Shown piece by piece: positions 6,733 through 45,331 of a stretch of 64,000 nt of DNA. A program made the translations under genes and the position numbers. Position 1 is the stretch's first letter, and each line of letters starts with the position of its first letter. The notes under the pieces are model-generated. The model did not search any database and was not told the origin of the DNA. It saw only the letters and a program-made list of their open reading frames with translations. The stretch comes from Gammaproteobacteria bacterium (GTDB lineage Bacteria > Pseudomonadota > Gammaproteobacteria > Poriferisulfidales > GCA-002705445). Location: NCBI GenBank assembly GCA_029268385.1, contig JAQWPG010000009.1, positions 6,077 to 70,076 of the forward strand, given 5' to 3'.

Positions 6733-7407
6733 ATGATGAGTGAATCAGTAGTTGATGGAGTTCCTTCAGGAGTAACCGGCTTAGTAGAAGACTGGGCTAG
6801 CGATAAGCAGGCTTACAATGTCCCGTGGGGCAAGGCCATGATGTGGATATTTCTGGTATCTGATACCTTCATATTCACTTGCTTTTTGACAGGTTATTTG
6901 AACGTTCGTCTTACGACGACCGAACCGTGGCCGCTCCAAACTGAGATTTTTGCGCTCACTCTGTTCGGTCAATCAGTGCCACTAGTTTTAATTGCAATTA
7001 TGACCTTTATCCTAATTACAAGCTCTGGCTCAATGGCCTTGGCAGTTAATTTTGGATATCGTAGAGACAAAACAAAAACCTTCTGGTTAATGGTTGCGAC
7101 CGCCTTGCTAGGAGCCTCCTTCGTCGGCATGCAAGCATTTGAGTGGACCAAATTGATACAAGAAGGGGTGAGGCCGTGGGCCAACCCTTTCGGGGCCGCT
7201 CAATTTGGCTCCGTTTTTTTTATGGTTACAGGATTTCATGGCTTACATGTGACCGGTGGCGTTATCTACCTTCTCGTTGTAGCGAACAAGATTCGGAAGG
7301 GGCATTACGACAAGAAAGGATTTGAAATCGTTGAAATTGCCGGCCTTTACTGGCACTTTGTCGACCTTGTGTGGGTCTTCATTTTTGCCTTTTTCTATTT
7401 ACTTTAA
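6733..7407 (+). CDS. coxC: Cytochrome c oxidase subunit III
   Basis: 224 aa with GFHGLHVTGGVIYL...YWHFVDLVWVFIFAFFYLL, the classical subunit III C-terminus. Confidence 0.8.
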   Translation: MMSESVVDGVPSGVTGLVEDWASDKQAYNVPWGKAMMWIFLVSDTFIFTCFLTGYLNVRLTTTEPWPLQTEIFALTLFGQSVPLVLIAIMTFILITSSGSMALAVNFGYRRDKTKTFWLMVATALLGASFVGMQAFEWTKLIQEGVRPWANPFGAAQFGSVFFMVTGFHGLHVTGGVIYLLVVANKIRKGHYDKKGFEIVEIAGLYWHFVDLVWVFIFAFFYLL

Positions 7408-7421
7408 AGAGAGAATTAAAC

Positions 7422-7814
7422 ATGTCATCTGACGTAGGACAACAACACCCGCTCGGTATATATTATAAAATTTGGGTTCTACTTTTCGTGTTAAGCGGGT
7501 TTTCATATGCCGTCGATTACTTCCATGTTGAGGGCGCGCTTCGCTGGTTTTTAGTGATCCTTTTCATGACTCTAAAAGCTGGTTTCATTGTTGCAATTTT
7601 TATGCACGTGGTTTGGGAACGCCTTGCCTTAGTTTGGACAATATTAGGTCCACCCATAGTATTGTTAGTCTTGATCGGTTTTATGGCGATAGAGGGGAAT
7701 TACACGGAAGGAACCCGATATCAATATCGCGGCGATGACCCAACTCTTCAGCCTCTATCTCCCAGTGACTTGCATCACGAAGAATCGGGCGACGCTACCT
7801 TGAACGAGCATTAA
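7422..7814 (+). CDS. Small membrane protein of the prokaryotic cytochrome c oxidase subunit IV type
   Basis: Internal ATG at 7422 preceded by the RBS aaagagag. It encodes about 130 aa with 3 to 4 TM helices (MSSDVGQQHPLGIYYKIWVLLFVLSGF...) and is the last gene of the cox cluster. The ORF-track start at 7371 overlaps coxC and is less likely. Confidence 0.5.
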   Translation: MSSDVGQQHPLGIYYKIWVLLFVLSGFSYAVDYFHVEGALRWFLVILFMTLKAGFIVAIFMHVVWERLALVWTILGPPIVLLVLIGFMAIEGNYTEGTRYQYRGDDPTLQPLSPSDLHHEESGDATLNEH

Positions 7815-7825
7815 GACTCTAGATC

Positions 7826-7840
7826 AGAAGAAGTTCTTCT
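7826..7840. terminator. Short palindrome AGAAGAA-G-TTCTTCT between convergent cox cluster and aroE. Possibly a weak bidirectional terminator.
   Basis: Inverted repeat seen in the sequence. The stem is short and there is no strong T-run. Confidence 0.2.
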
Positions 7841-7871
7841 ACTTAGCGCCCCTCGTATATTTCCCGAAAAT

Positions 7872-8687
7872 TTACCTCGCTCCTCTGAGTTTCTTGAGTA
7901 ACGGAGTGGTTGTTGGACGAAAACCCCGCCATAAAAAAAATGCCTCGGCCGCCTGCTCAACCAGCATCCCAAGCCCATCCATAGTATGCAAAACTCCATT
8001 CTGTTTAGCCCATCTAACAAAAACTGTATCTTCTTTAGAATACATCATGTCATAACAACAGCAATTTGGAGCGAGCATTGCTGAGCAAATAGGGGGTAAC
8101 TCCCCAACTAAACTAGATGACGTTGCATTTATAATCAAATCAAACTCCTTCTCAAATGCAGATCTAATCTCAAGCGCTTTTATATTAAACCTCTTCGCCA
8201 GAGCTTCGGCCTTGTGATGAGTTCGATTAACAATCGATACTAAGGCCGGATTACAGCTAATTAGGTCATAAATAACACCCCGAGCCGCACCACCGGCGCC
8301 GATAATTAAGATGCTTTTATTTGATATTGCGATGCCGTGGTTATCTACAATATCTCTTACTAACCCAAGGCCATCAGTATTTTCTCCGCATAACAGCCCT
8401 TGATTATCCATAAACAGGGTGTTTACAGCTCTCGATAACGTAGCGCGCTCAGATAATTTATCACACAATAAAAACGCTGATTCTTTGTGAGGCAAAGTGA
8501 TATTTAAACCGGCACCACCGGATTCAAAAAAATTCATCACGAAAGTTTGCAAACTGGCCTCATCAATTCTTTTTGCTTCGTAATGGATCGAGTCTGCCTG
8601 CTGATCAGCAAAGAATTTATGTATTTCTGGTGATCTACTGTGTTTTATCGGGTCGCCAATAACGCAATACAAAGGAGTTCTTTTCAA
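7872..8687 (-). CDS. aroE: Shikimate dehydrogenase
   Basis: 271 aa starting at TTG. The N-terminus MKRTPLYCVIGDPIKHSRSPEIHKFF... and the Rossmann motif IIGAGGAARGV are typical AroE. Its start overlaps the hemF stop. Confidence 0.9.
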   Translation of the reverse strand: MKRTPLYCVIGDPIKHSRSPEIHKFFADQQADSIHYEAKRIDEASLQTFVMNFFESGGAGLNITLPHKESAFLLCDKLSERATLSRAVNTLFMDNQGLLCGENTDGLGLVRDIVDNHGIAISNKSILIIGAGGAARGVIYDLISCNPALVSIVNRTHHKAEALAKRFNIKALEIRSAFEKEFDLIINATSSSLVGELPPICSAMLAPNCCCYDMMYSKEDTVFVRWAKQNGVLHTMDGLGMLVEQAAEAFFLWRGFRPTTTPLLKKLRGAR

Positions 8688-10801: not shown

Positions 10802-12106
10802 ATGGATAGAAAAGAACAGATTAAGCAATTAGAAAATGAATGGAAAACAAATCCCAGATGGGCAAATGTAAAAAGAGGCTATACTGCAGAAGATGTTGTA
10901 AGGCTTAGAGGTTCATTTGTACCAGAGTGTAGTTTAGCAAAAAAAGGCGCTGATAAACTATGGTCCTTAGTAAATGGAAGCGCTAAAAAAGGTTATGTAA
11001 ATAGTCTTGGTGCCTTAACAGGTGGACAAGCGATGCAACAAGTCAAAGCAGGTATTGAAGCAATTTATTTATCAGGTTGGCAAGTTGCTGCTGATGCAAA
11101 TACTTCAGAAACAATGTACCCAGACCAATCATTGTATGCATATGATTCTGTGCCAACAGTTGTAAGGAGAATCAATAATAACTTTAAAAGAGCAGATGAA
11201 ATTCAATGGGCAAAAGATATAAATCCTGGGGATAAGGAATATGTAGATTATTTCGCTCCGATCGTTGCCGATGCAGAAGCCGGGTTTGGTGGAGTTTTAA
11301 ATGCTTATGAACTTATGAAAAACATGATAACAAATGGTGCGTCCGGTGTTCATTTTGAAGACCAGCTAGCTGCTGCAAAAAAATGTGGCCATATGGGCGG
11401 TAAAGTTTTAGTTCCTACCCAAGAAGCTGTGCAAAAACTTATTGCTGCAAGACTAGCATCAGATGTTATGGGCGTCCCAACATTGTTGTTAGCTAGAACT
11501 GATGCGGAAGCTGCTAACTTAATTACTTCTGATGCTGATGAATACGATAAACCTTTTTTAACTGGCGAGAGAACAGACGAAGGTTTTTATAGAACAAAAA
11601 ATGGTATAGACCAAGCAATTTCAAGAGGATTAGCTTACGCTCCTTATGCAGATTTAATTTGGTGTGAAACAGGAACACCTGACCTAGAGTTCGCGAGAAC
11701 TTTTGCAGAAGCAATTAGAGCAGAATATCCAGATCAACTACTTGCTTATAACTGTTCACCTTCTTTTAACTGGAAGAAAAATTTAGATGATGCAACTATA
11801 GCTAAATTCCAAGACGAGTTAAGTGCCATGGGATATAAATATCAATTTATTACTTTAGCCGGTATCCATAACATGTGGTACAACATGTTTGACCTAGCGC
11901 ATTCATATGCTGCTGGCGAGGGAATGAAACATTATGTTGAAAAAGTTCAAGAGCCAGAATTTAATGCTGCTGACAAAGGTTATTCGTTTGTAAGTCATCA
12001 ACAAGAAGTTGGGGCTGGTTATTTTGATGACGTTACTACTGTGATCCAAGGTGGAAAATCATCTGTAACAGCTTTAACAGGCTCTACAGAAGAAGAGCAG
12101 TTTTAA
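10802..12106 (+). CDS. aceA: Isocitrate lyase
   Basis: 434 aa with the KKCGHMGGK catalytic loop and an ICL N-terminus ([32 protein letters not shown]). Confidence 0.95.
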
Positions 12107-12137
12107 TAGCTAATAAATAACTTGGAAATATTAAATT

Positions 12138-13463
12138 ATGTTTGATCATATAAAAGTCCCTGACGATGGAAGCAAGATTTATTTTGATGATAAAAATAAT
12201 CTAGTTGTGCCGAATAATCCCATTATCCCTTTTATTGAGGGAGATGGGATTGGTTTTGATATTACCCCAGTGATGCAAAATGTCGTAGATAGCGCTGTAA
12301 AAAAAGCATACAAAGGCGAAAAAAAAATTCATTGGATGGAAGTGTTTGCTGGTGATAAAGCAGTGAAAAAATACGGAAAGCATAATTACCTTCCTCAAGA
12401 AACATTTGATGCAATAGAAAAATTTGTTGTTGCAATAAAAGGACCATTGACTACTCCTGTTGGAGAAGGCTTGCGATCTTTAAATGTTGCAATAAGACAA
12501 GAGATGGATCTTTATGCATGTGTCAGACCAATTAAATACTTTCCAGGAACTAGAACCCCTTTGAAGAGTTCTAGTACAACTGATATGGTAATTTTTAGAG
12601 AAAACACAGAAGATATATATGCTGGAATAGAATGGGCCGCCCAAACAGGTGAAGTTAAAAAAGTTTTAGACTTTCTTATTAAAGAAATGAAAGTAACAGG
12701 AATTAGGTTTCCAAACACATCTGGCATAGGAATTAAGCCGGTTTCAAAAGAAGGATCAGAGAGACTAATTCGAAAAGCTATTCAATATGCAATTGATAAT
12801 AATAGAAGATCTGTATCATTAGTTCATAAAGGTAATATTATGAAATTTACTGAGGGGGCTTTTAGAAATTGGGGTTATGAATTAGCTACAAATGAATTTA
12901 GTGGAGAAGAAATAGATAATGGGCCATGGTGTAAAGTAATTAACCCAAATAATGGAAACGAAATAATCATAAAAGATGTAATAGCAGATAATTTTTTACA
13001 ACAAATTCTTTTGAGACCAGAAGAATATGATGTTATTGCAACATTAAATCTGAACGGTGATTATATTTCAGATGCCTTAGCAGCTCAGGTTGGTGGTATA
13101 GGTATTGCTCCTGGAGCAAACATATCAGATAAAGTTGCAGTTTTTGAAGCAACTCATGGGTCTGCACCAAAATACGCAGGAAAAAATAGAGTTAACCCAG
13201 GATCAATAATCCTTTCAGCCGAGATGATGTTACGTTATATAGGTTGGAATGAAGCTGCTGATAATGTTATGAATGGAGTTGCTCAAGCAATAGCAAATAA
13301 AACTGTAACATATGATTTAGCTAGAGTAAGAGCCGGCATGCAAACACTTGTAAAAAAACATGAGCATGGTCAGGAAATCGTAAAAGAGCTTGAGGAATTG
13401 ATGCCTGGAGCAACATTAGTAACATGTAGTGGATTTGGCGATGCTATTATAGACTGCATGTAA
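12138..13463 (+). CDS. icd: Isocitrate dehydrogenase (NADP-dependent, homodimeric Icd type)
   Basis: 441 aa with ...[15 protein letters not shown]...[33 protein letters not shown]...[26 protein letters not shown]..., the classical Icd signatures. Confidence 0.95.
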
Positions 13464-26312: not shown

Positions 26313-26897
26313 TTATTGTAACGGCAGATTTTTTACATCTTTCATTAAATACCTATTTACATATTTGAAAAATTCTTCAAACGGTGTGCCAGGCATAAAA
26401 ATCTTTTCAACATTATTATCTTTATTAAGCAAATACATATTAGCAGTATGATTAACAGTGTAGTTTTCAACTTCATCTTTATTTTGGTAGCTATAATAAA
26501 CATGGTACTGGTTCGAAACATTTTCAATTTGATCTTGTGTGCCTGTTAAGCCTATTATTCTTTCGTCAAAAAAAGCTAAATAGTTTTTCAATAATTCGGG
26601 CGTATCTCTAGTAGGGTCTACGGTAATAAAAATTGGTTCAATATTCTTTGACAAGCCATCAAGTTTATTTAATAAACTAGAGACCTCTGAGAGAGCCGTA
26701 GGACAAATATCTGGGCAGTTCAAAAAGCCAAAAAATACTATTTTAATTTTAGATGATTGCGAAAGGGTGTAGATGTTGTTATTTTGATCTTTGAGAGTAA
26801 AGTCACCTCCAATTTCAGCGTTTGCATAATTACATAATGTTAAAACATATATTAAGAATATATACTTAATGTATTTTCTTAAGTTTAAAATTTTCAT
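26313..26897 (-). CDS. SCO1/SenC family copper chaperone (periplasmic, thioredoxin fold)
   Basis: Internal ATG at 26897 with the RBS aaagggg upstream. Signal peptide, then FFGFLNCPDICPT CxxxC motif. It is divergent from mtoX. Confidence 0.8.
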   Translation of the reverse strand: MKILNLRKYIKYIFLIYVLTLCNYANAEIGGDFTLKDQNNNIYTLSQSSKIKIVFFGFLNCPDICPTALSEVSSLLNKLDGLSKNIEPIFITVDPTRDTPELLKNYLAFFDERIIGLTGTQDQIENVSNQYHVYYSYQNKDEVENYTVNHTANMYLLNKDNNVEKIFMPGTPFEEFFKYVNRYLMKDVKNLPLQ

Positions 26898-27017
26898 AAT
26901 GCGCCCCTTTTTTATCTCAATATAGTTAATTATCACAATATTAGACTATAATTATAATTAATACGAAAGCTTTAGATGTCATTGATGCGAAAGCTGTCAA
27001 TATATTGTCTTATAGCC

Positions 27018-27046
27018 TTGACGTTAAAGCTTAATCGTTCATAATA
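27018..27046 (+). promoter_or_regulatory. Candidate sigma70 promoter for mtoX: TTGACG, 16-17 bp spacer, CATAAT
   Basis: Seen in the sequence about 40 bp upstream of the mtoX ATG. Two CGAAAGCT direct repeats lie just upstream, at 26964-26971 and 26988-26995. Confidence 0.35.
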
Positions 27047-27081
27047 CAATATTCAAGAACTATAACGAATGAGGAAAAGCT

Positions 27082-28437
27082 ATGCATTTAAGAAAGTTTG
27101 GAGTTTCAATACTTGGAGCAATTTTACTAGCAATAAGTTCAGTAACTGTTGCGGATGAGACATGCATGTCTCCATATATGGCTAAAATTGTAGGTCAAGA
27201 AGACTACGTTTATGTTTGGACTTTGGGTGTTGAAGGCCTTGGTGACGAACAAGACAAGCTAGTTACAATCGATGTTAATCCTAAATCAAAAACTTACGCT
27301 AAAGTAGTAAGTGTGCTTTCAGTTGGCGGTAGAAACGAAGCTCATCATTCAGGCTTAAGTGATGATAGGCATTATCTATGGGCTGGCGGATTAGATAGTA
27401 ACAAAATTTTTATCTTTGACGTTCACTCAAACCCAAGAAAACCAACCCTTCATAAAGTTATTACAGATTTCGTTGAGAAAACAGGCGGAATCGTAGGCCC
27501 ACATACATTTTATGCGCTACCAGGCAGAATAATGGTATCTGGCTTATCAAATAATAAAGATAATGGTGGTAGAACAGGACTTGCAGAATACAACAGCAAG
27601 GGTGAATTTATTGCTACACATTGGCTACCAACAGACGGTGATCTTAGAGGAGCTAAGAAGGAAGGTCAATTTGCTGATGGTTATGGATATGATGTTCGTG
27701 TTCAACCAAGAAGAAATGTAATGCTTACATCTTCATTTACAGGCTGGTCTAATTATATGATGGACTTTGGTCAAATGTTACAAGATGGAGAAGCAATGAA
27801 AAGATTTGGTAATACTATGGTTGTTTGGGATCTACACACAAGAAAACCTAAGAAAGTTATCGATGTCCCAGGAGCACCTTTAGAAATTAGATGTGCATGG
27901 GGAGCGAATAATAATTATTGCTTTACAACAACAGCTCTAACTTCAAAAATTTGGTTAATATATGAAGATGATAATGGTGAATGGCAAGGTAAAGCAGTAG
28001 CAGATATTGGTGATGCTTCAAAAGTTCCTCTGCCTGTAGATATCTCTATAACAGCTGATGATAAAGGACTTTGGGTTGATACATTTATGGATGGTAAAGC
28101 AAGATATTTTGATATTACTGATCCATTTAACCCAGTGCAAAAATTTGAAGAGCAGATAGGCTCGCAAGTTAATATGATATCTCAAAGTTGGGATGGAAAA
28201 AGAGCTTACTTCTCAACATCTCTTTTAGGTAATTGGGATAAAACAGGAGAAGCAGACGAGCAATGGGTCAAATTGTATGCTTGGGATGAAGATAAATTAT
28301 CTTTAACACACAAGTGGACAATTGATTTTTATAAAGAAAAACTTGGAAGAGCACACCAAATGAGATTTGGTGCTTATTCTTTATATTCAAGTAAAAATCA
28401 AAACAAAGGAAAAGACATAACATTATTAGATAAGTAA
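27082..28437 (+). CDS. mtoX: Selenium-binding protein 56 family, periplasmic. Candidate Cu-dependent methanethiol oxidase MtoX.
   Basis: 451 aa with a signal peptide. It aligns to SELENBP1 along its length (...LVTIDVNPKSKTYAKVV...EAHHSG...IFIFDVHSNPRKPTLHKVI...DVRVQPRRNVMLTSSF...YFSTSLLGNWDK...). It is flanked by SCO1 and MauG-like genes, as in described mto loci. Confidence 0.85.
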   Translation: MHLRKFGVSILGAILLAISSVTVADETCMSPYMAKIVGQEDYVYVWTLGVEGLGDEQDKLVTIDVNPKSKTYAKVVSVLSVGGRNEAHHSGLSDDRHYLWAGGLDSNKIFIFDVHSNPRKPTLHKVITDFVEKTGGIVGPHTFYALPGRIMVSGLSNNKDNGGRTGLAEYNSKGEFIATHWLPTDGDLRGAKKEGQFADGYGYDVRVQPRRNVMLTSSFTGWSNYMMDFGQMLQDGEAMKRFGNTMVVWDLHTRKPKKVIDVPGAPLEIRCAWGANNNYCFTTTALTSKIWLIYEDDNGEWQGKAVADIGDASKVPLPVDISITADDKGLWVDTFMDGKARYFDITDPFNPVQKFEEQIGSQVNMISQSWDGKRAYFSTSLLGNWDKTGEADEQWVKLYAWDEDKLSLTHKWTIDFYKEKLGRAHQMRFGAYSLYSSKNQNKGKDITLLDK

Positions 28438-28467
28438 TTTATTAATTTCTTACAAAGTGTTAAAATT

Positions 28468-28496
28468 AAGGCTAACTTGTGTTAGCCTTTTTTTTA
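28468..28496 (+). terminator. Rho-independent terminator after mtoX
   Basis: Stem AAGGCTAAC, loop TTGTG, stem TTAGCCTT, followed by a T8 run. Confidence 0.6.
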
Positions 28497-28499
28497 TTT

Positions 28500-28540
28500 G
28501 AAACTTACGAAACTTACGAAACTTATGAAACTTATGAAAT
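28500..28540 (+). repeat. Tandem 9-bp repeat (GAAACTTAC/T), about 4.5 copies, spanning the start codon region of the downstream gene
   Basis: GAAACTTAC GAAACTTAC GAAACTTAT GAAACTTAT GAAAT. It is in frame and encodes (KLT)(KLT)(KLM)(KLM)K. Confidence 0.8.
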
Positions 28541-29241
28541 ATATATTAATTATGTTTGTTGTTATTAGTTTTACTCAAAAAATATCTTATGCAGATAACG
28601 ATATAAAAAAAGAGAGAGAAAAAATTAAAAACGAAAGAAATAGTTTGGCAATTGGCTGGAGAGATAATCTTGGATACGAATTACCAAAACCAGGGTCTTA
28701 TGATCTTTATAACATAAGAATTTCTGGTGATGGGAAAATCATTGACGAAAATGGAAAAGAAAATACTTTACATAATTTAATGGATGGGAAAATAACCTTA
28801 TTAAGCTTTATTTATAGTAATTGTACAGATACAAATGGTTGCCCATTAGCAACATCTGTATTCTATAAAATACAGGAAAAAATTAAAAAAGATAATAAAT
28901 TATTATCAAGTTTGAAAATGATAAGTTTAAGCTTTGATCCAGAATACGATACTCCGCAAATAATGTCGCTGTATGGTAAAGATTTAAGTTATATTAAGGC
29001 AAACTGGGATTTTCTCACCACATCTTCACTTGAAAACCTAGATCCTATACTTAAAAGCTATGACCAACCAGTAATTAGAAAATATAATGAAGATGGTAGC
29101 TATGATGGCGTTGAATCACATTTGCTTCGTGTATTTCTTATTGATGATAAAAAACTTATAAGAAATGTGTACAATGTTGACTTCCTGCATCCAGACCTAT
29201 TGATAAACGATATAAAAACTCTATTATTAAGTAATGAGTGA
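28525..29241 (+). CDS. SCO1/SenC-like thioredoxin-fold protein (variant C-x5-C motif), periplasmic
   Basis: Signal peptide MKLMKYILIMFVVISFTQKISYA. ...LLSFIYSNCTDTNGCPLATSVF... resembles the SCO motif region. The start is ambiguous among TTG 28498, ATG 28525 and ATG 28534 because of the tandem repeat. Confidence 0.55.
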   Translation: MKLMKYILIMFVVISFTQKISYADNDIKKEREKIKNERNSLAIGWRDNLGYELPKPGSYDLYNIRISGDGKIIDENGKENTLHNLMDGKITLLSFIYSNCTDTNGCPLATSVFYKIQEKIKKDNKLLSSLKMISLSFDPEYDTPQIMSLYGKDLSYIKANWDFLTTSSLENLDPILKSYDQPVIRKYNEDGSYDGVESHLLRVFLIDDKKLIRNVYNVDFLHPDLLINDIKTLLLSNE

Positions 29242-30568
29242 GAATTTCTTCGATAATAAAATACAAAAAATAGCAAAGGTTCTAATATTAATTTTATTTT
29301 CTTGCAATATATTCGCGGGCGATGATATTGATAGTTACTTGGGTCCTGGTGACAACAAGGAAGGTTATGATTCAAAAAATTATACAACTAATTCAATAAG
29401 TCTTGATGATAGAAAAGGAAAAAAAGCAGACTTATTGCAATATGTAACAATAAAACAATTAGGATTGCCTGAATTAATCATTCCTGAAAATAATAAAATT
29501 ACAAAAGAAAAAATTGAATTGGGTAAAAAACTTTTCTTTGATAGAAGATTGTCTTTAAATAATACAATGTCTTGCGGTATGTGCCATGTGCCGGAACAAG
29601 GTTTTACAAATAATGAAATTAAAACAGCTGTAGGGATAGAAGGTAGGTCCAATTTAAGAAACACACCAACAATTCTCAATGTTGCATTTAACAAATTTTT
29701 ATTTCATGATGCGCGCGAATTTTCATTAGAGAATCAAGTTTGGCAACCAGTATTAGCTCATTCTGAAATGGCAATGCCGTCATTTGGCTTCACTATCAAA
29801 AAATTAGAGCTAATACCAGGCTATAAAGAAATGTTTGATAATGCATTTCCGGGCGAGGGCATTAATATGGAAACTTTTGGAAAAGCGATTGCAAGCTACG
29901 AAAGAGCACTAGTATCTGCTAATTCGTCTTTTGATAAATGGTACTTTGGAAAAAATGAAGAAGCTGTAAATGATAATGTAAAAAAGGGTTTCGAAGTGTT
30001 TGTTGGAAAAGGAGGATGTTCAAGTTGCCACCAAATAAATAAAAATGAAGCCTTATTCTTTGATAATAAGCTTCATAATACTGGTATTGGATATGCAGAA
30101 TCTATGGGTGTTTTAAAGAAGATTAAAACTAAAGTTCAGTTGGCGCCAGGAGAATATGTAGAAGTAGATAATGAAATTATAAATAGTGTAAACCAGCAAA
30201 AAAGAAACAATGATTTAGGCTTGTATACCATTACTGAAAATCCAGAACACAGGTGGTTATTTAAAACCCCAAGTCTTAGAAATGTATCTTTAACTGCACC
30301 TTATATGCATAACGGTATTTTTGGTACTCTAGATGAGGTAATTGACTTTTATAATGGCGGTGGATTTAGTAACGAATTACTTAGCCCAATGATAAAAAAA
30401 TTGAATTTAACCAAAGATGAAAAAAATAATCTAAAATATTTTTTAGAATCTTTAGTTGGTGATAATATAAATATTTTAGTAGCTGATGCATTATCTACTC
30501 CTGTTGGAGATTTGACGAAAGATGATCCAAACTGGGCAAATGAGAATGATATGGGGTATAATAAATAG
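29234..30568 (+). CDS. Di-haem cytochrome c peroxidase family protein (MauG-like)
   Basis: 444 aa. Signal peptide and two CxxCH motifs (CGMCHVPEQGF, CSSCHQINK) with spacing and length typical of bacterial CCP/MauG. Confidence 0.85.
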   Translation: MSENFFDNKIQKIAKVLILILFSCNIFAGDDIDSYLGPGDNKEGYDSKNYTTNSISLDDRKGKKADLLQYVTIKQLGLPELIIPENNKITKEKIELGKKLFFDRRLSLNNTMSCGMCHVPEQGFTNNEIKTAVGIEGRSNLRNTPTILNVAFNKFLFHDAREFSLENQVWQPVLAHSEMAMPSFGFTIKKLELIPGYKEMFDNAFPGEGINMETFGKAIASYERALVSANSSFDKWYFGKNEEAVNDNVKKGFEVFVGKGGCSSCHQINKNEALFFDNKLHNTGIGYAESMGVLKKIKTKVQLAPGEYVEVDNEIINSVNQQKRNNDLGLYTITENPEHRWLFKTPSLRNVSLTAPYMHNGIFGTLDEVIDFYNGGGFSNELLSPMIKKLNLTKDEKNNLKYFLESLVGDNINILVADALSTPVGDLTKDDPNWANENDMGYNK

Positions 30569-30569
30569 C

Positions 30570-31085
30570 ATGAAAACAACATCTTGCTTCTTTTTGCCAA
30601 TATTATTTCTACTATTAGCATCCTGTGCTGATGTTAAAGAAAGTCCTATGTTAAAAGTAGATGGTGGAAAATATTCAAATTTTAATTTGCCAAACCTAAA
30701 AGGTAAATATATTAGCTCAAATGATTTTAAAGGTAATTACGTTTTGGTTAACTTCTGGGCTACATGGTGCGCCCCTTGTGTTAAAGAACTTCCTTCTCTC
30801 AATAGTCTTAATAGTGAATTTAGTAATAGTAAAAATTTTAAAATGGTTGCTATAAATATTGGGCAAAATAAAGAAGTTGTAGAGAAATTTTTTGCTGACA
30901 AATCTACTCAAATTAATTTTACAGTTCTTCTTGATGAAAATATGGAGCTTTCAGAATGGAGTGTTCAAGCAATACCAACTACATTTTTAATTAATGACAA
31001 AGGTAAAATTATTTATAAAGTAGAGGGAGAGAAAGAATGGGACAGCCCTGAGTTTGTCTCATTTATAAGTTCTATTATTAACTAA
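30570..31085 (+). CDS. TlpA-like thiol-disulfide oxidoreductase lipoprotein
   Basis: ATG at 30570 with the lipobox LLLASC. It carries the WATWCAPCVKE thioredoxin active site and abuts the end of the MauG-like gene. Confidence 0.8.
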   Translation: MKTTSCFFLPILFLLLASCADVKESPMLKVDGGKYSNFNLPNLKGKYISSNDFKGNYVLVNFWATWCAPCVKELPSLNSLNSEFSNSKNFKMVAINIGQNKEVVEKFFADKSTQINFTVLLDENMELSEWSVQAIPTTFLINDKGKIIYKVEGEKEWDSPEFVSFISSIIN

Positions 31086-31095
31086 AAAAAATAAA

Positions 31096-31368
31096 TTATT
31101 CAGATGTAGTTGGGTCTATAGTTTTCGTAATTGCACTAATCTTATTTGCAGGAAAACCACCTTCTTTTGCGTGTTCCTTTATTAGCTCTTCATTTGGAGC
31201 AATATAAACACAATATACTTTATCTTTTGTGACATAACTTTCAACCCACTGAATCTCAGTTCCGAGTTTTTTTAGAATCGAGCATGATTTTTGTGAAATC
31301 CCCTGAAGTTCATCTGTTGTCAAAGAACCAGCATCATTAATATCTCTTTCAATTATAAATTTAGGCAT
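31096..31368 (-). CDS. Small DUF4242-like protein (90 aa)
   Basis: MPKFIIERDINDAG...DKVYCVYIAPNEELIKEHAKEGGFPANKISAI resembles the SCO4226-type DUF4242 family. Function unknown. Confidence 0.45.
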   Translation of the reverse strand: MPKFIIERDINDAGSLTTDELQGISQKSCSILKKLGTEIQWVESYVTKDKVYCVYIAPNEELIKEHAKEGGFPANKISAITKTIDPTTSE

Positions 31369-32188: not shown

Positions 32189-32276
<88 letters not shown>

Positions 32277-32300
32277 TTGTTTTGCAATATAGGAGGAAAA

Positions 32301-32453
32301 ATGATGATGATAATTTTAACAATAATATGCATAGTTATTATGTTAATTTTGTTTTCTATTAGTAAAAGCTTGGATTCGATAAATGAACAATTAGATCAGA
32401 TCGTAGAAACAAACAAAAAATTAGTTGAAAATACAAAAGATAATTCTGAGTAA
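32301..32453 (+). CDS. Small single-pass membrane protein (51 aa)
   Basis: Strong SD (AGGAGGAAAAATG). [24 protein letters not shown]..., then a polar coiled tail. The ORF-track start at 32232 lies inside the tRNA and is rejected. Confidence 0.4.
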
Positions 32454-32507: not shown

Positions 32508-32897
32508 TTATTTGTAATCGTCAATAATCCCAATTTTCTTCATCCATTCCTTAAAACCGCCTTTCATATGAGATACTTTGTTATAGCCCATGTCCTTAAG
32601 AGTTTTAGACGCAAGAGCTGATCTTGCTCCAGAGTGACAATATAGAATAATATCTTTTTCCTTGTTAAAAAAATCTTTGTAATATTCGCATTTTGGATCT
32701 GCAAAAAACTCAAGATGTCCTCTTGAAGCATGATATGAGCCAGGGATAATGCCATTTTCAATGAGCTCCGATGTATCTCTTAAATCTATTATATTGGCAT
32801 TATTTGAATTTAGTATATTTTCAACATCATTAACTGAAAGCTCATTAAGATTCTTTTTTGCTTTTCTTATCATTTCTTCAACAGTGGTATTTTCCAT
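32508..32897 (-). CDS. Single-domain rhodanese (sulfurtransferase)
   Basis: 129 aa with the active-site loop CHSGARSA. Confidence 0.8.
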   Translation of the reverse strand: MENTTVEEMIRKAKKNLNELSVNDVENILNSNNANIIDLRDTSELIENGIIPGSYHASRGHLEFFADPKCEYYKDFFNKEKDIILYCHSGARSALASKTLKDMGYNKVSHMKGGFKEWMKKIGIIDDYK

Positions 32898-39373: not shown

Positions 39374-40006
39374 TTGAAAAGTACTGAAATCTCTGTGAAT
39401 TCAGCAACATGCTATAAAAATAACAATTTAATTTTTAGTGATGTTAGCATTTCCTACAATGATGGCGATATTGGTATCATTATGGGACCAAATGGTTGCG
39501 GAAAAACCACATTAATTAGGTCGATTTGTGGCATCCAAGCCTTAGATGAAGGGCAAATATTATTAGATAAAATAGATATAAAGAACCATAATAATAATTA
39601 TATGGATAAAATTATTTATATTGGTCATAAAAATAGCCTAAATAATGATTTTTCAGTTTATGAAAACCTTGAGTATTTAAGCGCATTTGATTCTTCATCT
39701 AAAATTAATAAAATTAATGAGGCCATGAAATACTTTGATATATATAAATATAGAAACTATATGGTGTCAGAGATTTCTGAAGGAAACAAAAAAAAGGTTT
39801 CTTTAGCAAGATTGCTTATATCACAAAAAAAAGTTTGGATATTAGACGAGCCTTTGAGTTATCTTGATGATACAGCAGTGAATATTTTTACTAACTTGGT
39901 ACTAAATCATCAGAAAAAGGGTGGAATTACAATAGCCTCAACTCATTATGATTTTTCAAAAAATATAAACAATGTTAAATATTTAAATATGGACCCTGGA
40001 AGGTAA
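39374..40006 (+). CDS. ccmA: Cytochrome c biogenesis haem-exporter ATPase
   Basis: 210 aa ABC ATPase (GPNGCGKTT...LSEGNKKKVSLARLL...WILDEP) heading the ccm operon. Confidence 0.85.
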   Translation: MKSTEISVNSATCYKNNNLIFSDVSISYNDGDIGIIMGPNGCGKTTLIRSICGIQALDEGQILLDKIDIKNHNNNYMDKIIYIGHKNSLNNDFSVYENLEYLSAFDSSSKINKINEAMKYFDIYKYRNYMVSEISEGNKKKVSLARLLISQKKVWILDEPLSYLDDTAVNIFTNLVLNHQKKGGITIASTHYDFSKNINNVKYLNMDPGR

Positions 40007-40008
40007 AA

Positions 40009-40671
40009 ATGATTAATATGTTAGTGAAAAAAGAATTAGCCTTGTATTTTAGGAATTTAAATAATATATTTTTACCTCTTGTATTTTTTTTCTTAATTAT
40101 ATCAATATTTCCTTTGGTATTAGGTCCTGAGAAGAATTTATTTGACAAAATTATTCCAGGTATAATTTGGATAACAGCTATATTAACAACAATTTTAACT
40201 TCTAATAATTTTTTTAAAGATGACTTTAATAATGGAATTATTGAAATATATCTAACATCTGATATGTCAGTCGAATTAGTTCTTTTTTTAAAAATAATTT
40301 CGTGCTGGTTTTTTACATGTTTTCCAATTTTAATTTTTATACCTTTGGTATCGTTATTATTTAGCATACCATTTCAAAATTCTATGGTTATATTGTTAAC
40401 CTTGTTTATTGGAACTCCTGTTCTTATATCAATTGGAATATTTGGATCTGCTTTAACTTTAGGCTTAGCTAAAAATAATATTTTGACTCCTGTTATAATT
40501 ATTCCTTTTTATATTCCGGTATTAATATTTTCTGCCAGTGCAATTGAGGCGGTGTCAACTGGGCTGCCTTTTGAAATGCAAATTTATATTTTGGCTGCGC
40601 TTTTAATTCTCGTGCTGCCTATAATGCCATATTTGCTAAAATATACCTTGGGGCTTAGTATTAACAACTAA
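40009..40671 (+). CDS. ccmB: Haem exporter protein B
   Basis: 220-aa six-TM protein in the canonical position. Confidence 0.85.
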   Translation: MINMLVKKELALYFRNLNNIFLPLVFFFLIISIFPLVLGPEKNLFDKIIPGIIWITAILTTILTSNNFFKDDFNNGIIEIYLTSDMSVELVLFLKIISCWFFTCFPILIFIPLVSLLFSIPFQNSMVILLTLFIGTPVLISIGIFGSALTLGLAKNNILTPVIIIPFYIPVLIFSASAIEAVSTGLPFEMQIYILAALLILVLPIMPYLLKYTLGLSINN

Positions 40672-40673
40672 TT

Positions 40674-41402
40674 ATGAATATTTCTAAAATTGCAAATTTA
40701 AAGTTTTTTTATACTAATACTAGAAAAATTTCTTATTACATGTCTTTTTTTGTAATGATTTTATTTATTATTGGAATTTATTGGGGTTTATTTATTGCGC
40801 CAGAGGACTATTTGCAAGGAGATAGTTATAGAATTATGTATATGCATGTACCTGCGGCATGGTTATCTTTACAAACTTATATGGTAATGGCTATAACAGG
40901 CTTTATAGCGTTAGTGTGGAAAATCAAAATTATGGAAATTATAAGTATCCAATGTGCCCCTATTGGAGCTCTTTTTACTATAATTGCTTTAGTTACAGGA
41001 ATGGTTTGGGGTAAACCAACTTGGGGCACATACTGGGTTTGGGATGCCAGGTTAACGTCGGAACTAATATTATTATTTTTATATATCGGCGTAATGGTTT
41101 TGTACGCTTCAATTAATGATAAAAGACAAGCTGTTAAAATTACTTCACTATTAGCAATAATAGGACTTATTAACATTCCGATAATTCATTATTCAGTAGA
41201 ATGGTGGAATACATTACATCAGGGTCCAACAGTGACTAAATTTGACAAACCCTCAGCGCACACAACAATGCTTTACCCACTTTTATATATGTTTATTGTA
41301 TTCAATATATATTTTATTACCGTAATTATAAAAAGGGTAAGACTTGGAATATATGCACGTGAAAAAAACAGTAAGTGGATGGAGGAGTATACAGATGATT
41401 GA
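40674..41402 (+). CDS. ccmC: Haem exporter protein C
   Basis: 242 aa with a WWD-type tryptophan-rich periplasmic loop (...VEWWNTLHQG...). Confidence 0.9.
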   Translation: MNISKIANLKFFYTNTRKISYYMSFFVMILFIIGIYWGLFIAPEDYLQGDSYRIMYMHVPAAWLSLQTYMVMAITGFIALVWKIKIMEIISIQCAPIGALFTIIALVTGMVWGKPTWGTYWVWDARLTSELILLFLYIGVMVLYASINDKRQAVKITSLLAIIGLINIPIIHYSVEWWNTLHQGPTVTKFDKPSAHTTMLYPLLYMFIVFNIYFITVIIKRVRLGIYAREKNSKWMEEYTDD

Positions 41403-41550
41403 GTTTTTAAGTATGGGAAAACATACAGCATTTGTTTACATAGCATATATATTTTCAATTGTAGTACTATTATTAGGCTATTACTTACCGCATTATGCGC
41501 TAAAAAAAGAAATAAGAATAAAGAATGATAAAAATAACAAAAACAAATAG
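41395..41550 (+). CDS. ccmD: Haem exporter protein D
   Basis: 51 aa with a single TM helix, starting at the ATG that overlaps the ccmC stop (ATGATTGA). Confidence 0.6.
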   Translation: MIEFLSMGKHTAFVYIAYIFSIVVLLLGYYLPHYALKKEIRIKNDKNNKNK

Positions 41551-41977
41551 AAAAAGAATAGTAAAAATTTCTATTTTCTTTTTTGCTATATCAAGTTTTA
41601 GTGCTTTATTAATATATGCTTTTAGTAAAAATATGGTTTATTTTTATACGCCAACTCAAATTATTGAAAAAGAAGCGCCCATGAATTCTTTTATAAGAAT
41701 AGGGGGTATGGTAAAAGAAAACTCATTAGTTAAATCAAATGATAGTTTAAAAGTTTCATTCAAGATTCATGATCTAGAGCAAGTTATAAATATAACCTAT
41801 GACGGAATACTTCCAGATCTATTTGCTGAAGGGCAAGGTGTTGTGATGACAGGAACACTAATAAATGAAGATACATTTATCGCCGATGAGGTTCTTGCAA
41901 AACATGATGAGAATTATATGCCACCCGAGGTCGCCGATATGATGAAAGAAAAAAACGGAGTTTTGTATAAAAAATGA
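41525..41977 (+). CDS. ccmE: Cytochrome c-type biogenesis haem chaperone
   Basis: 150 aa with an N-terminal anchor and OB-fold region (...FYTPTQIIEK...FRIGGMVKENS...LPDLFAEGQGVVMTG...). Confidence 0.85.
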   Translation: MIKITKTNRKRIVKISIFFFAISSFSALLIYAFSKNMVYFYTPTQIIEKEAPMNSFIRIGGMVKENSLVKSNDSLKVSFKIHDLEQVINITYDGILPDLFAEGQGVVMTGTLINEDTFIADEVLAKHDENYMPPEVADMMKEKNGVLYKK

Positions 41978-43914
41978 TCACTGAAGTTGGTAATTTCATT
42001 TTAAGTATTTCAGCAACGCTTTCCTTGTGTATGTTTTCTGTTATTTTCTTCAAAAAATATGTGGGCATTAATTCTAGGTACACTTTCTGTAAAATAATCT
42101 CTCTTACTATATCGTTTTTAATCCTTGTTTCTTTTATTTTACTAGCTTACGCCTTTTTGACTGATGATTTTTCTTTAAGGTACGTTGCAAATAATTCTAA
42201 TATATCTCTAGATACTATATATAAGTTTTCAGCTGTATGGGGTGCACATGAGGGGTCAATTCTACTATGGGTTTTAGTTTTATCAGTTTGGGCATCATGC
42301 ATACCCATATTATCTTCAAATATGCCTAAAAATATTATCATTGATATGCTTTCCATCATGGGAATATTAATTTTGTTTTTTTTGACATTCATTCTTTTTA
42401 GTTCAAATCCATTCGATAGAATCTTTCCTATACCATTAAATGGTAGAGACCTTAATCCACTTCTTCAAGACCCTGGTTTGATAATACATCCTCCCATGCT
42501 TTATATTGGTTATGTGGGTACAAGTGTGCCTTTTGTTTTCGCGGTTGCTGTACTGTTAAATGGACATATAAACACAGAATGGATTTCTTGGCTTAGAAAG
42601 TGGGTAGTAACATCATGGGTTTTTCTAACTATCGGAATATCTCTAGGGAGTTGGTGGGCTTATCACGAATTAGGTTGGGGTGGATGGTGGTTTTGGGATC
42701 CAGTAGAAAACGCATCTTTTATGCCTTGGCTTGCCATAACAGCTCTTTTGCATTCATTAATAGTATCTGAGAAGAGAGAATTATTTATAAATTGGACTAT
42801 ATTATTGGCAATACTAACTTTTTCGTTGAGTTTACTTGGTGCGTTTTTGGTAAGATCAGGGATATTAGTATCTGTTCACGCTTTTGCAAATGACCCAGAA
42901 AGAGGTTTGTATATATTATTATTTTTATCGTTAGTGATCGGATTATCATTAGCATTGTATTTTTTAAAATCAAAATTATTAATTTCAAATAACCAATATT
43001 CAATTACTTCAAAAGAATTTATACTTCTATTGAATAATTTATTTTTGACCATTACAACATTCTCAATTTTATTAGGTACATTATATCCATTGATAACCAG
43101 CTCACTGGATTTAGGTAAAATCTCTGTTGGTGCACCGTATTTTAACTTTATTTTTTCAGCATTAATGTTACCGATAGTATTTTTAATGTCATTTGCTATA
43201 TATTCAAGTTGGAGTAAAACAAATTATAGTTATTTAATAAAGAAACTAGGGTTGTTGTTATTTTACTCTGTTATTATTGTTTACATATATATGAATTTTT
43301 ATCTCCAAAGTGATATTTTTGTTGTTTTCTTAGCATTATCTTTAGCAATTTTTACAATTTTTTCATCATCAATAAAAATTTTACAATTCTTATATAATTC
43401 AGGATGTTCAAATATATTAAAAAGTATTTTTTCATTGCCTAGTTCTATGGTATCAAATATATTTGCCCACATTGGTATAGGTGTATTAATTATTGGTATT
43501 ACAATGAGTAATTATTACTCGATCCAGAAAGAGGTTGTAATGAAAAAAAATTCTCAAGTAACAATAAAAGATACTTCGATTAAATTTATAGGTGTAAAAA
43601 ATAAAATTTCTAATAATTATGCTTCGCAAGTAGGAATATTTGATGCATATAAAAATAATAATTACCTTATTTCATTCTTTCCAGAGAAAAGAACATATAA
43701 TATTCAAAAAAATATTATGACAGAAGCAGCTATAAACTCTACTTTAACAAGAGATATATACGTTGCTTTAGGTGAAAGTCTTTCGAATGACTCTTGGGTA
43801 GTAAGGATTTATTACAAGCCTTATATTCAATTACTGTGGTATGGAGTTGGATTAATGATTTTAGGAGGTTTATTTGGTATATTTGGAAGAAATAAATTAG
43901 AAAATATTAAATAA
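41974..43914 (+). CDS. ccmF: Cytochrome c haem lyase subunit
   Basis: 646 aa polytopic protein with the WWD motif (...WWAYHELGWGGWWFWDPVEN...). Confidence 0.9.
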   Translation: MITEVGNFILSISATLSLCMFSVIFFKKYVGINSRYTFCKIISLTISFLILVSFILLAYAFLTDDFSLRYVANNSNISLDTIYKFSAVWGAHEGSILLWVLVLSVWASCIPILSSNMPKNIIIDMLSIMGILILFFLTFILFSSNPFDRIFPIPLNGRDLNPLLQDPGLIIHPPMLYIGYVGTSVPFVFAVAVLLNGHINTEWISWLRKWVVTSWVFLTIGISLGSWWAYHELGWGGWWFWDPVENASFMPWLAITALLHSLIVSEKRELFINWTILLAILTFSLSLLGAFLVRSGILVSVHAFANDPERGLYILLFLSLVIGLSLALYFLKSKLLISNNQYSITSKEFILLLNNLFLTITTFSILLGTLYPLITSSLDLGKISVGAPYFNFIFSALMLPIVFLMSFAIYSSWSKTNYSYLIKKLGLLLFYSVIIVYIYMNFYLQSDIFVVFLALSLAIFTIFSSSIKILQFLYNSGCSNILKSIFSLPSSMVSNIFAHIGIGVLIIGITMSNYYSIQKEVVMKKNSQVTIKDTSIKFIGVKNKISNNYASQVGIFDAYKNNNYLISFFPEKRTYNIQKNIMTEAAINSTLTRDIYVALGESLSNDSWVVRIYYKPYIQLLWYGVGLMILGGLFGIFGRNKLENIK

Positions 43915-44432
43915 TGATTCATAAGTTATCTGTCTTGCCAATATCAATTTTTTTAGTAATACTTTATTTCCTTTTTAGTGGTTTAAGTAAAGATCCAACA
44001 CTTATACCATCACCATTAATAGGAAAGCCAGTTCCTGAATTCTCATCTACGACATTATTTGAAAAAAAAACCATTACCAACACGGATCTTTTGGGTGAAA
44101 CATATCTCCTTAATGTATGGGGAAGTTGGTGCTATGGTTGTAGTATAGAGCATGACTTCATAATGGACATCAATTCAAAGAAAACCATAAAAATATATGG
44201 TTTAAATTATAAAGATAAAAGATTCGCTGCTATAAATTGGCTTGAAAAAAAAGGCAACCCATATAAAAGTATTATTTTTGATGACACAGGATCTATAGCA
44301 ATTGATTTTGGAGTTTATGGAGCGCCTGAAACGTTCTTAATAAATGATGAAGGAATAGTTATACATAAACATATAGGCCCAATTGATCAAGCTTATTATA
44401 AAAAAATAATTTTACCAGTAATTGAAAAATGA
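43914..44432 (+). CDS. ccmG: Periplasmic thiol:disulfide interchange protein DsbE
   Basis: 172 aa with N-terminal anchor and the WGSWCYGC active site. Confidence 0.85.
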   Translation: MIHKLSVLPISIFLVILYFLFSGLSKDPTLIPSPLIGKPVPEFSSTTLFEKKTITNTDLLGETYLLNVWGSWCYGCSIEHDFIMDINSKKTIKIYGLNYKDKRFAAINWLEKKGNPYKSIIFDDTGSIAIDFGVYGAPETFLINDEGIVIHKHIGPIDQAYYKKIILPVIEK

Positions 44433-45331
44433 ATAGACATATAGTTTTTATTTTAATTTTAATTTTCAATATTAGTGCAACTTATGCTGAAAATAATAAC
44501 GAATATAATAAAATTATTGAAAATTTAAGATGCTTAGTTTGTCAAAATCAATCCTTGTCAGAATCTGATTCTAATTTAGCAAAAGATTTGAGAAGTAAAG
44601 TAAAATCAATGCTTGATTCAGGAAAATCAGAAAAAGAAATATATAAATTTATGTCTGATAGATATACAGACTATGTTCTATATAACCCACCGCTGAAAAA
44701 AAGTACATTTTTTCTTTGGTATGGTCCATTTTTAATATTAATTATCTCTATTATATTTTTGATCAGGTTCTCTGGCAATAGTGGAAAATCTTCATTTAAA
44801 AGTAAGAGTGTTAATAATGATAATGAAAAACTAAAAATTAATTCACCCAAAAAAAACAAAAAATATTTTTATTTGATCGCATTTCTTTTCATTCCAGTTT
44901 TGACGCTTTCTATATATTCTTACTCGAGCGAGTATATGAGGTATAAAATATCGTACTATTTTGAATCTAAGGACCCAATAATTGATATTACAATAACAAT
45001 TCATAATGATATTTTAAGTAATATTTCTGGCAATGAGGTATTATTTGTTTATGCTAGAAGATCAAATGGCATGAGAGTTCCTTTAGCAATAGATATATTT
45101 GATGTTACTAAATCAAAAAAAAATTATAATGTTAGATTGGATAACACAATGAGTATGATTAAAGCGCAAACACTTGCTTCAGCTGATGAGGTGATTGTTG
45201 AGGCAAGAATATCAAAACACAAAAAAGCTATGACTATGCCAGGTGACTTTATTGGTACCTCAGGTGCATTTAAAATAAAGTCATCGAATTACATAATGCT
45301 TAAAATAAACTCAGTGGTAAAAGAGGAATAA
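44429..45331 (+). CDS. ccmH: Cytochrome c-type biogenesis protein CcmH (with extended C-terminal domain)
   Basis: 300 aa with signal peptide and the LRCLVCQNQSLSES (LRCxxC) motif. Confidence 0.75.
   Translation: MNRHIVFILILIFNISATYAENNNEYNKIIENLRCLVCQNQSLSESDSNLAKDLRSKVKSMLDSGKSEKEIYKFMSDRYTDYVLYNPPLKKSTFFLWYGPFLILIISIIFLIRFSGNSGKSSFKSKSVNNDNEKLKINSPKKNKKYFYLIAFLFIPVLTLSIYSYSSEYMRYKISYYFESKDPIIDITITIHNDILSNISGNEVLFVYARRSNGMRVPLAIDIFDVTKSKKNYNVRLDNTMSMIKAQTLASADEVIVEARISKHKKAMTMPGDFIGTSGAFKIKSSNYIMLKINSVVKEE

Follow-up and report, generated by a model that had tools for sequence, protein, structure and literature searches.

A methanethiol oxidase operon of published type in an uncultured oceanic gammaproteobacterium, and covariation of its MauG-like gene with an MtoX tryptophan and a Sco loop

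Which of the genes that surround a bacterial methanethiol oxidase gene belong to it, and on what might their products act? The question is raised by a 64,000-nucleotide (nt) stretch of DNA from an uncultured gammaproteobacterium (GenBank assembly GCA_029268385.1, contig JAQWPG010000009.1, forward-strand positions 6,077 to 70,076), here called the window, in which mtoX, the gene for a selenium-binding-protein-56 (SBP56) homologue, is flanked by two SCO genes, a MauG-like di-haem protein gene and the gene for a TlpA-like lipoprotein. The locus is very probably an mtoX operon of the published type, equipped with SCO, MauG-like and TlpA-like helper genes. The operon, the idea of a MauG-made cofactor and the TlpA partner are all already in print, and what our comparison adds is a modest new lead that reaches beyond the window, namely a covariation between MauG, Trp222 of MtoX and a loop of the operon Sco protein. 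The features concerned are:

26313-26936, minus strand: canonical SCO1/SenC gene (Pfam SCO1-SenC, PF02630, 147 bits; CPDICP; distal His; signal peptide)
26937-27081: intergenic region between SCO1 and mtoX, with a promoter-like site and a ribosome-binding site
27082-28437, plus strand: mtoX (Pfam SBP56, 180 bits; NCBIfam MtoX equivalog NF052453, 749 bits)
28468-28499, plus strand: terminator-like hairpin (terminator scan and folding)
28498-29241, plus strand: mtoX-operon SCO-like gene (SCO1-SenC, 47.7 bits; C-TDTNG-C-P; signal peptide)
29234-30568, plus strand: MauG/MbnH-like di-haem gene (CCP_MauG, 168.7 bits; CGMCH and CSSCH)
30570-31085, plus strand: TlpA/ResA-family lipoprotein gene (AhpC-TSA, Redoxin and Thioredoxin_8; WCAPC; lipobox LLAS/C)

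A first-pass annotation of this DNA had given the five genes their families and motifs, and open reading frames (ORFs) together with Pfam and NCBIfam profile searches recover all five at these coordinates. Likely starts are ATG 26897 for SCO1, ATG 28525 or 28534 for the SCO-like gene, 3' of the hairpin and its T-run, and ATG 30570 for the TlpA-like gene, 2 nt past the MauG-like stop, the mechanical ORF running from 30522. The SCO-like and MauG-like genes overlap by 8 nt. In the source metagenome-assembled genome (MAG) the Prokaryotic Genome Annotation Pipeline labels are SBP56-related protein, cytochrome c peroxidase and, for a further gene downstream, DUF4242 protein.

The SBP56 homologue had been read as an exported, periplasmic MtoX, and both parts of that reading hold. 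The score against NF052453, an equivalog-level MtoX model, lies above the cut-off of 650 bits and covers model positions 1-407 of 408, and the protein is 65% identical to SPOA0269 of Ruegeria pomeroyi, annotated mtoX, a gene genetically required for methanethiol oxidation in that organism (PMC5739008). A signal peptide is predicted to be cut after Ala24, between SVTVA and DETCMSPYM, and the resulting mature N-terminus, DETC, aligns with the sequenced N-terminus of Hyphomicrobium methanethiol oxidase (MTO), DETxNSPF (PMC5739008). All proposed catalytic residues are kept by alignment: Cys28 lies in TCMSPYM (motif TCxSPYM), the proposed copper ligands His88, His89, His141 and His425 are all present, and Trp222 and Trp385 are equivalent to R. 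pomeroyi residues 223 and 386. No substitution of Cys28, of any of the four His or of Trp385 occurs among the 172 MtoX sequences of our combined set, described below. The window MtoX also carries a cysteine pair, C271/C280. In R. pomeroyi MtoX, Cys28 is needed for activity and reportedly forms a mixed disulfide with methanethiol (PMC10936201). A PDB sequence search returns archaeal SBP56 (2ECE) as the sole relative; a matured bacterial MtoX is not among the PDB structures. On homology and conservation, mtoX is predicted to encode a Sec-exported, copper-dependent methanethiol oxidase. Of the products previously named for it, formaldehyde stands, and the H2S and H2O2 part is disputed, one group reporting sulfane sulfur and no H2O2 (PMC10936201) and another copper-dependent formation of H2S, H2O2 and formaldehyde by MTO (PMC13603461).

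To what extent do the neighbouring genes travel with mtoX? Neighbourhoods were compared at 80 loci fetched from species-representative genomes, all of them gammaproteobacterial MAGs or single-amplified genomes, with MtoX 72-97% identical to that of the window, and each count covers only those loci with enough flanking sequence. At 67 of 74 loci mtoX is followed by an SCO gene or SCO::MauG fusion and a MauG-like gene, and a TlpA-like gene comes after the MauG-like gene at 41 of 70. The mtoX-SCO-MauG trio also occurs in unrelated genomic settings, SCO::MauG fusions are found in several lineages, and the TlpA-like gene stays attached despite a different downstream flank in the Porisulfidus loci. 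The clustering of mtoX, SCO and MauG is not by chance. Overlapping or abutting, and conserved to this degree, the SCO-like, MauG-like and TlpA-like genes bear out the earlier proposal of an accessory set. The further claim that this set is richer than in described loci falls, apart from the upstream SCO1, since tlpA after sco1/mauG has been published for Methylophaga (PMC6548844). Separately, mtoX is present in two or three copies in some genomes (L063; L014, L061 and L065 from the same MAG; L028, L031, L033 and L035), of which the extras are solo, have no SCO or MauG and keep Trp222; such copies may rely on accessory genes elsewhere in the genome.

A promoter-like site at 27018-27045 (TTGACG, a 16-nt spacer, CATAAT; consensus matches only) precedes mtoX, and the sequence reads as a GAGGA ribosome-binding site about 7 nt 5' of its ATG. 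Between mtoX and the SCO-like gene lies the hairpin, with a 9-bp stem (AAGGCTAAC/GTTAGCCTT), a 4-nt loop and then a T-run; it folds at -16.2 kcal/mol (z = -4.6), an energy reached by 0 of 200 shuffles. Of about 70 loci, about 50 have a hairpin and T-run in this place, built from stem sequences that differ between clades, which argues for a conserved structure. The simplest reading is that it would serve as a partial terminator lowering accessory-gene expression. A regulatory RNA in the region was considered and rejected, as Rfam finds three tRNAs only, and no rRNA, over the window. At the 5' end of the SCO-like ORF a 9-nt unit, GAAACTTAY, stands four times in tandem (28499-28534), encoding (K-L-T/M) repeats before the signal peptide; the unit is in frame and therefore should not switch the gene off, and its copy number may differ among strains.

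The SCO-like protein is a standard companion of mtoX. The first-pass annotation had cast SCO1 as the main chaperone and the C-x5-C protein as a second variant, and the comparison reverses these roles: the C-x5-C protein is the universal mtoX partner and SCO1 occurs at only 25 of 73 loci. The SCO-like score is above the PF02630 gathering score of 22.8 bits, and the nearest PDB entry is Bacillus subtilis Sco (1XZO), with further matches to ScoI (4WBJ and 4TXO). Its loop, C-TDTNG-C-P (Cx5CP), carries a two-residue insertion relative to CETICP of B. subtilis Sco, and the distal His208 is kept, aligns with the His of B. subtilis Sco and is invariant across both SCO types. Every SCO located between mtoX and mauG has the insertion (69/69 loci and 120/120 database homologues); the loop is invariant in the 69 locus homologues and in 119 of the 120 from databases, the exception, CGDEKGCP, still being Cx5CP. 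SPOA0270 of R. pomeroyi, with CGDVNGCP, is likewise Cx5CP, and the SCO::MauG fusions also carry the insertion. Because CX3CP is the stated hallmark motif of ScoI proteins (PMC6669012), this subfamily fails that hallmark. No description of a Cx5C Sco variant came up in a search of the literature.

The TlpA-like protein is predicted to be a tethered periplasmic thioredoxin fold; its active site is WCAPC, and its hydrophobic N-terminus leads into a lipobox, LLASC. It falls under the NCBIfam cut-offs for both ResA (NF002854; 102.3 bits against 170) and TlpA (NF047696; 85.8 bits against 230), its nearest PDB entries are 3KCM, ResA (1ST9) and TlpA (1JFU), with TlpA in 4TXO also matched, and by sequence it is best described as a member of the TlpA/ResA/DsbE family. 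A role as general cytochrome c maturation reductase was rejected, as the complete ccm operon of the window (39374-45331; CcmA, B, C, E, F, G and H/I) has its own CcmG/DsbE (43914-44432; WCYGC), 26% identical to the TlpA-like protein. Since the window has this CcmG and also a cox-linked SCO (733-1479), the SCO and TlpA-like genes of the operon are additional copies beside the housekeeping ones. In Bradyrhizobium, TlpA reduces ScoI and CoxB before copper insertion (PMC6669012). Two TlpA-like paralogues are present in 17 of the 41 TlpA-bearing loci; at two-paralogue loci (L010-L030, L044, L046, L063) the C-x-x-C of the first is preceded by S, K or E, not W, and the window copy is nearer the second (40-47% identity) than the first (30-35%).

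What kind of enzyme is the MauG-like protein? By profile and residue tests it resembles MauG and MbnH and is a member of neither. Its haem sites are CGMCH (C114-H118) and CSSCH (C262-H266). Tyr373 aligns with the axial Tyr of true MauG and of MbnH and stands at the position of the axial Met of the peroxidases 1NML and 2C1U, so that the His/Met ligation of peroxidases is not found. His158 (L-F-H-D-A-R) stands where MauG and the peroxidases have their inter-haem Trp (F-W-D-G-R), Trp93 in Paracoccus denitrificans MauG. Among 95 mtoX-linked homologues this position is H, L, Q, A or other and never Trp (0/95), and the axial Tyr is present in 91. The best NCBIfam match is MbnH (TIGR04039), at 231.3 bits under a cut-off of 362.85, and the MauG model (TIGR03791) gives 200.6 bits under 443.85; the best PDB sequence matches are bacterial di-haem peroxidases. 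No mau genes for a methylamine dehydrogenase (MADH) partner occur in the window, and no MbnP lies beside the MauG-like gene, whose neighbour is of the Sco family. As the inter-haem Trp is missing and the scores are under the MauG and MbnH cut-offs, MauG-type bis-Fe(IV) chemistry is not to be assumed.

A clue to what this enzyme may act on came from two plasmid-borne MauG-less MtoX loci, of Skermanella and Microvirga, which have a Cx3CP Sco and no Trp222. These were followed up by a homologue search seeded with the Skermanella protein and a metagenome scan seeded with Trp222-less variants, and six of six context look-ups fitted the prediction, non-Trp variants being without MauG and Trp variants with it. 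The combined set comprises 172 MtoX genes, 129 of which come with 2 kb or more of sequence downstream. MauG is present at 92 of these loci, each of them with both Trp222, which in the window MtoX lies in the peptide SSFTGWSNYMMDFGQMLQDGEAMK, and the SCO loop C-x-[D/E]-x-x-G-C-P. At 12 of the 37 MauG-less loci position 222 holds L, K, R, T, A, F or M instead, and none of the 37 has this loop form; 17 have another Cx5CP loop (e.g. CAAPKACP), 5 Cx3CP, 2 no recognisable motif and 13 no adjacent SCO. After dereplication at 90% the table of MauG against Trp222 reads 63/0/19/11 (p = 9e-7; p = 6e-5 at 80%) and that of MauG against the loop 63/0/0/19 (p = 5e-19). A rough neighbour-joining tree groups the MauG-less loci with a retained SCO into a single clade of 25, in which Trp222 was replaced at least five times. 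The remaining MauG-less cases are solo mtoX copies, all with Trp222, some of them in genomes with a full operon elsewhere. Genomes with SCO and no MauG had been listed before, in Table S7 of Eyice et al. (PMC5739008). The rule that a MauG-less locus has a Cx3CP Sco was dropped, because L098 and the large CAAPKACP class show MauG-less Cx5CP loops; it is the loop Asp and Gly that go with MauG, not loop length. The MauG-less Cx5CP loops often have Ala for Asp and Gly, as in CAAPKACP and CSDPRACP (L098:6318-7025; L112, L114, L115 and others), and look intermediate between the MauG-linked loop and CX3CP.

Our reading of these alignments is that Trp222 appears to be constrained only when MauG is present, and they therefore point to Trp222, not Trp385, as the candidate MauG-linked residue. 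The Asp and Gly of the Sco loop would be tied to MauG in the same way, which fits the recurrent SCO::MauG fusions. Eyice et al. proposed in 2017 that MauG makes a tryptophan tryptophylquinone (TTQ) from two conserved Trp near the four His copper ligands (PMC5739008). An essential TTQ cofactor is unlikely, because MauG-less, Trp222-less homologues retain the rest of the active site, R. pomeroyi MtoX produced in Escherichia coli without MauG is reported active (PMC10936201) and MauG-less cytoplasmic homologues, including human SELENBP1, are active (PMC13603461). A Trp222 modification would seem to be an accessory trait of the periplasmic enzymes. We tentatively propose, as an idea more apt to fail than to hold, that the MauG-like enzyme acts on Trp222 together with a co-adapted C-x-D-x-x-G-C-P Sco, as an optional upgrade and not an essential TTQ, by a chemistry that would differ from that of MauG because the inter-haem Trp is missing.

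Taken together, these elements suggest a sequence of events in the periplasm. The SCO-like protein would load copper into apo-MtoX, and by analogy with TlpA, ScoI and CoxB in Bradyrhizobium the TlpA-like reductase may keep the SCO cysteines reduced before metallation, and perhaps MtoX cysteines too. The MauG-like enzyme would contribute an oxidative chemistry tied to Trp222, and the hairpin would hold the accessory proteins below the level of the enzyme. Mature MtoX would then convert methanethiol to formaldehyde and reduced sulfur, whether H2S with H2O2 or the sulfane sulfur favoured by the other side of that dispute. Several observations weigh against one or another part of this scheme. The function of MtoX in this clade is predicted from sequence. 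The SCO-like protein departs from the canonical CX3CP and its copper binding is a prediction, the upstream SCO1 is missing from two thirds of loci, and 29 of 70 loci, as well as the alphaproteobacterial operons, have no TlpA-like gene. The MauG-like protein lacks the inter-haem Trp and scores under both family cut-offs, and MauG could act in trans. The tree is rough, and loss of MauG with SCO kept is essentially one event; because it maps to one clade, few independent events stand behind the MauG side of the covariation. MtoX homologues without MauG and Trp222 keep every other active-site residue, and the activity of the E. coli-made R. pomeroyi enzyme means that a MauG-made cofactor is not strictly required.

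Could the components be doing something else? The MauG-like protein, instead of being a maturation enzyme, might be a dedicated periplasmic peroxidase that clears H2O2 made by MtoX. Its family is that of the di-haem cytochrome c peroxidases, its best sequence matches in the PDB are bacterial peroxidases, MTO is reported to release H2O2 (PMC5739008, PMC13603461), Methylophaga induces catalase and peroxiredoxin on dimethyl sulfide (DMS) (PMC6548844) and the R. pomeroyi enzyme works without MauG (PMC10936201). Yet the axial Tyr373 in place of Met and the missing peroxidase inter-haem Trp are not those of a peroxidase, covariation with Trp222 and the SCO loop, and fusion to SCO in several lineages, would be unexpected for a scavenger, and one study detected no H2O2 from MtoX (PMC10936201); we regard this alternative as quite improbable. 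More improbable still by far is that the SBP56 homologue has another function, selenium binding or the oxidation of another thiol. The assignment in this clade comes from sequence, and both SELENBP1 and RdMTO also act on related alkyl thiols (PMC13603461), but the window protein lies above the MtoX equivalog cut-off, has 65% identity to a proven MtoX, retains all catalytic residues and shares the operon context, and no Se was found in Hyphomicrobium MTO (PMC5739008).

The TlpA-like protein, rather than serving Sco as in the scheme above, might act mainly on MtoX itself, on the C271/C280 pair or by keeping or regenerating the Cys28 thiol, for instance from Cys28-S-S-CH3. The mixed disulfide of Cys28, a residue needed for activity (PMC10936201), would give it a substrate, and TlpA-like genes are found only where MtoX has the cysteine pair (40/40), the 9 pair-less loci having none. 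However, 32 loci have the pair without an adjacent TlpA-like gene, the pattern follows the split between gamma- and alphaproteobacteria, so phylogeny confounds it, and the documented substrates of TlpA are ScoI and CoxB (PMC6669012). The association of gene and pair was set aside as a one-way implication confounded by phylogeny, and a role mainly on MtoX appears rather unlikely. For the upstream SCO1 the balance is much closer. The protein has the fully canonical CX3CP Sco motif (CPDICP) and a distal His in VNHTANMYL, CPD[IV]CP is kept in 28 SCO1 homologues divergent from mtoX, and it is 31% identical to the cox-linked SCO at 733-1479. That it stands outside the module, as a neighbour kept by synteny and serving another cuproenzyme such as a terminal oxidase, comes near to an even call, leaning slightly against. 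The gene occurs in a single syntenic gammaproteobacterial lineage (FolP-PCD-SCO1-mtoX), is lost in some syntenic relatives that keep all else, and is absent from the alphaproteobacterial, methanotroph and other mtoX operons examined. Against this, its divergence from mtoX over 145-185 nt would allow co-regulation, the window already has the cox-linked SCO, and Hyphomicrobium MTO has been modelled with two Cu per monomer (PMC5739008). A role for SCO1 as the only housekeeping Sco was rejected on account of that cox-linked gene. The divergent canonical SCO1 is a lineage-specific extra whose membership of the module is uncertain, and it may supply a second copper or serve another cuproenzyme.

Two further genes lie downstream:

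31096-31368, minus strand: DUF4242 (SCO4226-like) gene for a small, cytoplasmic protein (Pfam PF14026, 96 bits), a possible associate only
32508-32897, minus strand: rhodanese gene (74 bits)

The DUF4242 gene is convergent with the TlpA-like gene, 10 nt apart. We find it at 32 of 61 loci and in two arrangements or more, lying directly 5' of mtoX on the same strand in methanotroph-type loci, and it neighbours mtoX at L072, L075, L078-L080, L127, L168, L173 and L177. Its conservation matches that of MtoX (62-99% identity). Four of four distant DUF4242 homologues (71-73% identity) are away from mtoX; upstream of one of them lies a 443-aa gene that has no relation to MtoX. DUF4242 is already listed as an operon neighbour in Table S7 of Eyice et al. 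(PMC5739008), and for this reason, and with its distant homologues unlinked to mtoX, we rejected it as a new module component. The single-domain rhodanese gene is real, as first annotated, but its suggested role as the handler of sulfide or sulfane sulfur from the module is rejected: it occurs at 7 of 61 loci, all closest syntenic relatives, its product has no signal peptide and is cytoplasmic, and it lies on the opposite strand beyond DUF4242, YccA and tRNA-Ser, past three genes and the tRNA. This tRNA-Ser(UGA) (32189-32276), between YccA and the rhodanese gene, is overlapped by a 73-aa ORF (32232-32453) that is probably no gene.

The cox-linked SCO belongs to a cytochrome c oxidase cluster in window positions 1-8000:

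733-1479: SCO
1483-2367: haem O synthase
2912-4270: CoxB with a C-terminal di-haem cytochrome c domain
4320-6074: CoxA
6078-7407: CoxC-like genes

This part of the window has a GC content of about 43-46%, against about 24-35% elsewhere, a difference that may come from horizontal acquisition, from strong codon constraint or from a join in the assembly. Elsewhere, at 10802-13463, isocitrate lyase and isocitrate dehydrogenase genes adjoin, which suggests a glyoxylate shunt in a small low-GC genome.

Methanethiol is a major intermediate of marine dimethylsulfoniopropionate and DMS turnover, and here the whole of the known MtoX system is found in an oceanic gammaproteobacterium that is abundant, uncultured and low in GC; the window proteins turn up again on many contigs from Tara, JGI and ENA. 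This is relevant to gene-centric surveys of the sulfur cycle and leaves the overall picture unchanged. The role of MauG for MtoX has been in question since 2017, and the covariation hands experimenters a specific residue, peptide and Sco variant. Should the Trp222 proposal prove true, the 2017 TTQ proposal, in which both Trp were assumed to be strictly conserved, would be revised, and MauG-like enzymes would gain a third class of client after MADH and MbnP.

How does the locus compare with systems already described? The TlpA-ScoI-CoxB system of Bradyrhizobium diazoefficiens likewise combines a membrane-tethered thioredoxin-like reductase with a Sco protein in the periplasm before copper insertion. 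There, however, the client is a CuA oxidase, as against presumed MtoX, ScoI has CX3CP where the window has Cx5CP, and TlpA has CVPC where the window reductase, which is lipid-anchored, has WCAPC. MauG of the mau cluster is alike in being a di-haem protein with a His/Tyr six-coordinate haem (Tyr373 corresponding to MauG Tyr294) encoded beside its proposed client, and the window protein is about 33% identical to true MauG. The mau cluster differs in that the window has no MADH, MauD, MauE or amicyanin genes, and the client would be a beta-propeller copper enzyme. MbnH and MbnP again pair a di-haem enzyme with a copper-binding protein and keep the axial Tyr, whereas identity of the window protein to Methylocystis MbnH is about 28-32% and the copper protein of the window is of the Sco family. 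Manesis et al. are said to have found in 2021 that MbnH turns a Trp of MbnP into kynurenine, building a copper site.

The closest counterparts are the published mtoX loci themselves. Kroeber and Schaefer described in 2019 two clusters of Methylophaga thiooxydans (mtoX, sco1::mauG, tlpA, pdo and sqrB) that are induced on DMS (PMC6548844). Compared by description, these share with the window a TlpA-like gene after SCO and MauG and products that are all predicted to be exported; in M. thiooxydans SCO and MauG are fused, whereas in the window they are separate, and the window, unlike these clusters, lacks the persulfide dioxygenase, sulfide:quinone reductase and sulfate permease genes that follow. 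Eyice et al. established in 2017 that bacterial SBP56 is a copper-dependent periplasmic methanethiol oxidase encoded in an mtoX-SCO1/senC-mauG operon, in some cases with SCO::MauG fusions (PMC5739008). The operons of Hyphomicrobium sp. VS and R. pomeroyi DSS-3 (SPOA0269-0271) have the same order of mtoX, SCO and MauG-like gene as the window. R. pomeroyi MtoX shares with that of the window the signal peptide, DETC, the Cys28 motif, the His ligands and the two Trp, and the R. pomeroyi MauG-like protein, 45% identical to that of the window, has the same axial Tyr and a His at the Trp93 position. Unlike the operons of Eyice et al., the window lacks an upstream IclR regulator and a downstream glutathione-dependent formaldehyde dehydrogenase, and beyond them it has the TlpA-like lipoprotein, the divergent SCO1, the C271/C280 pair and the hairpin after mtoX.

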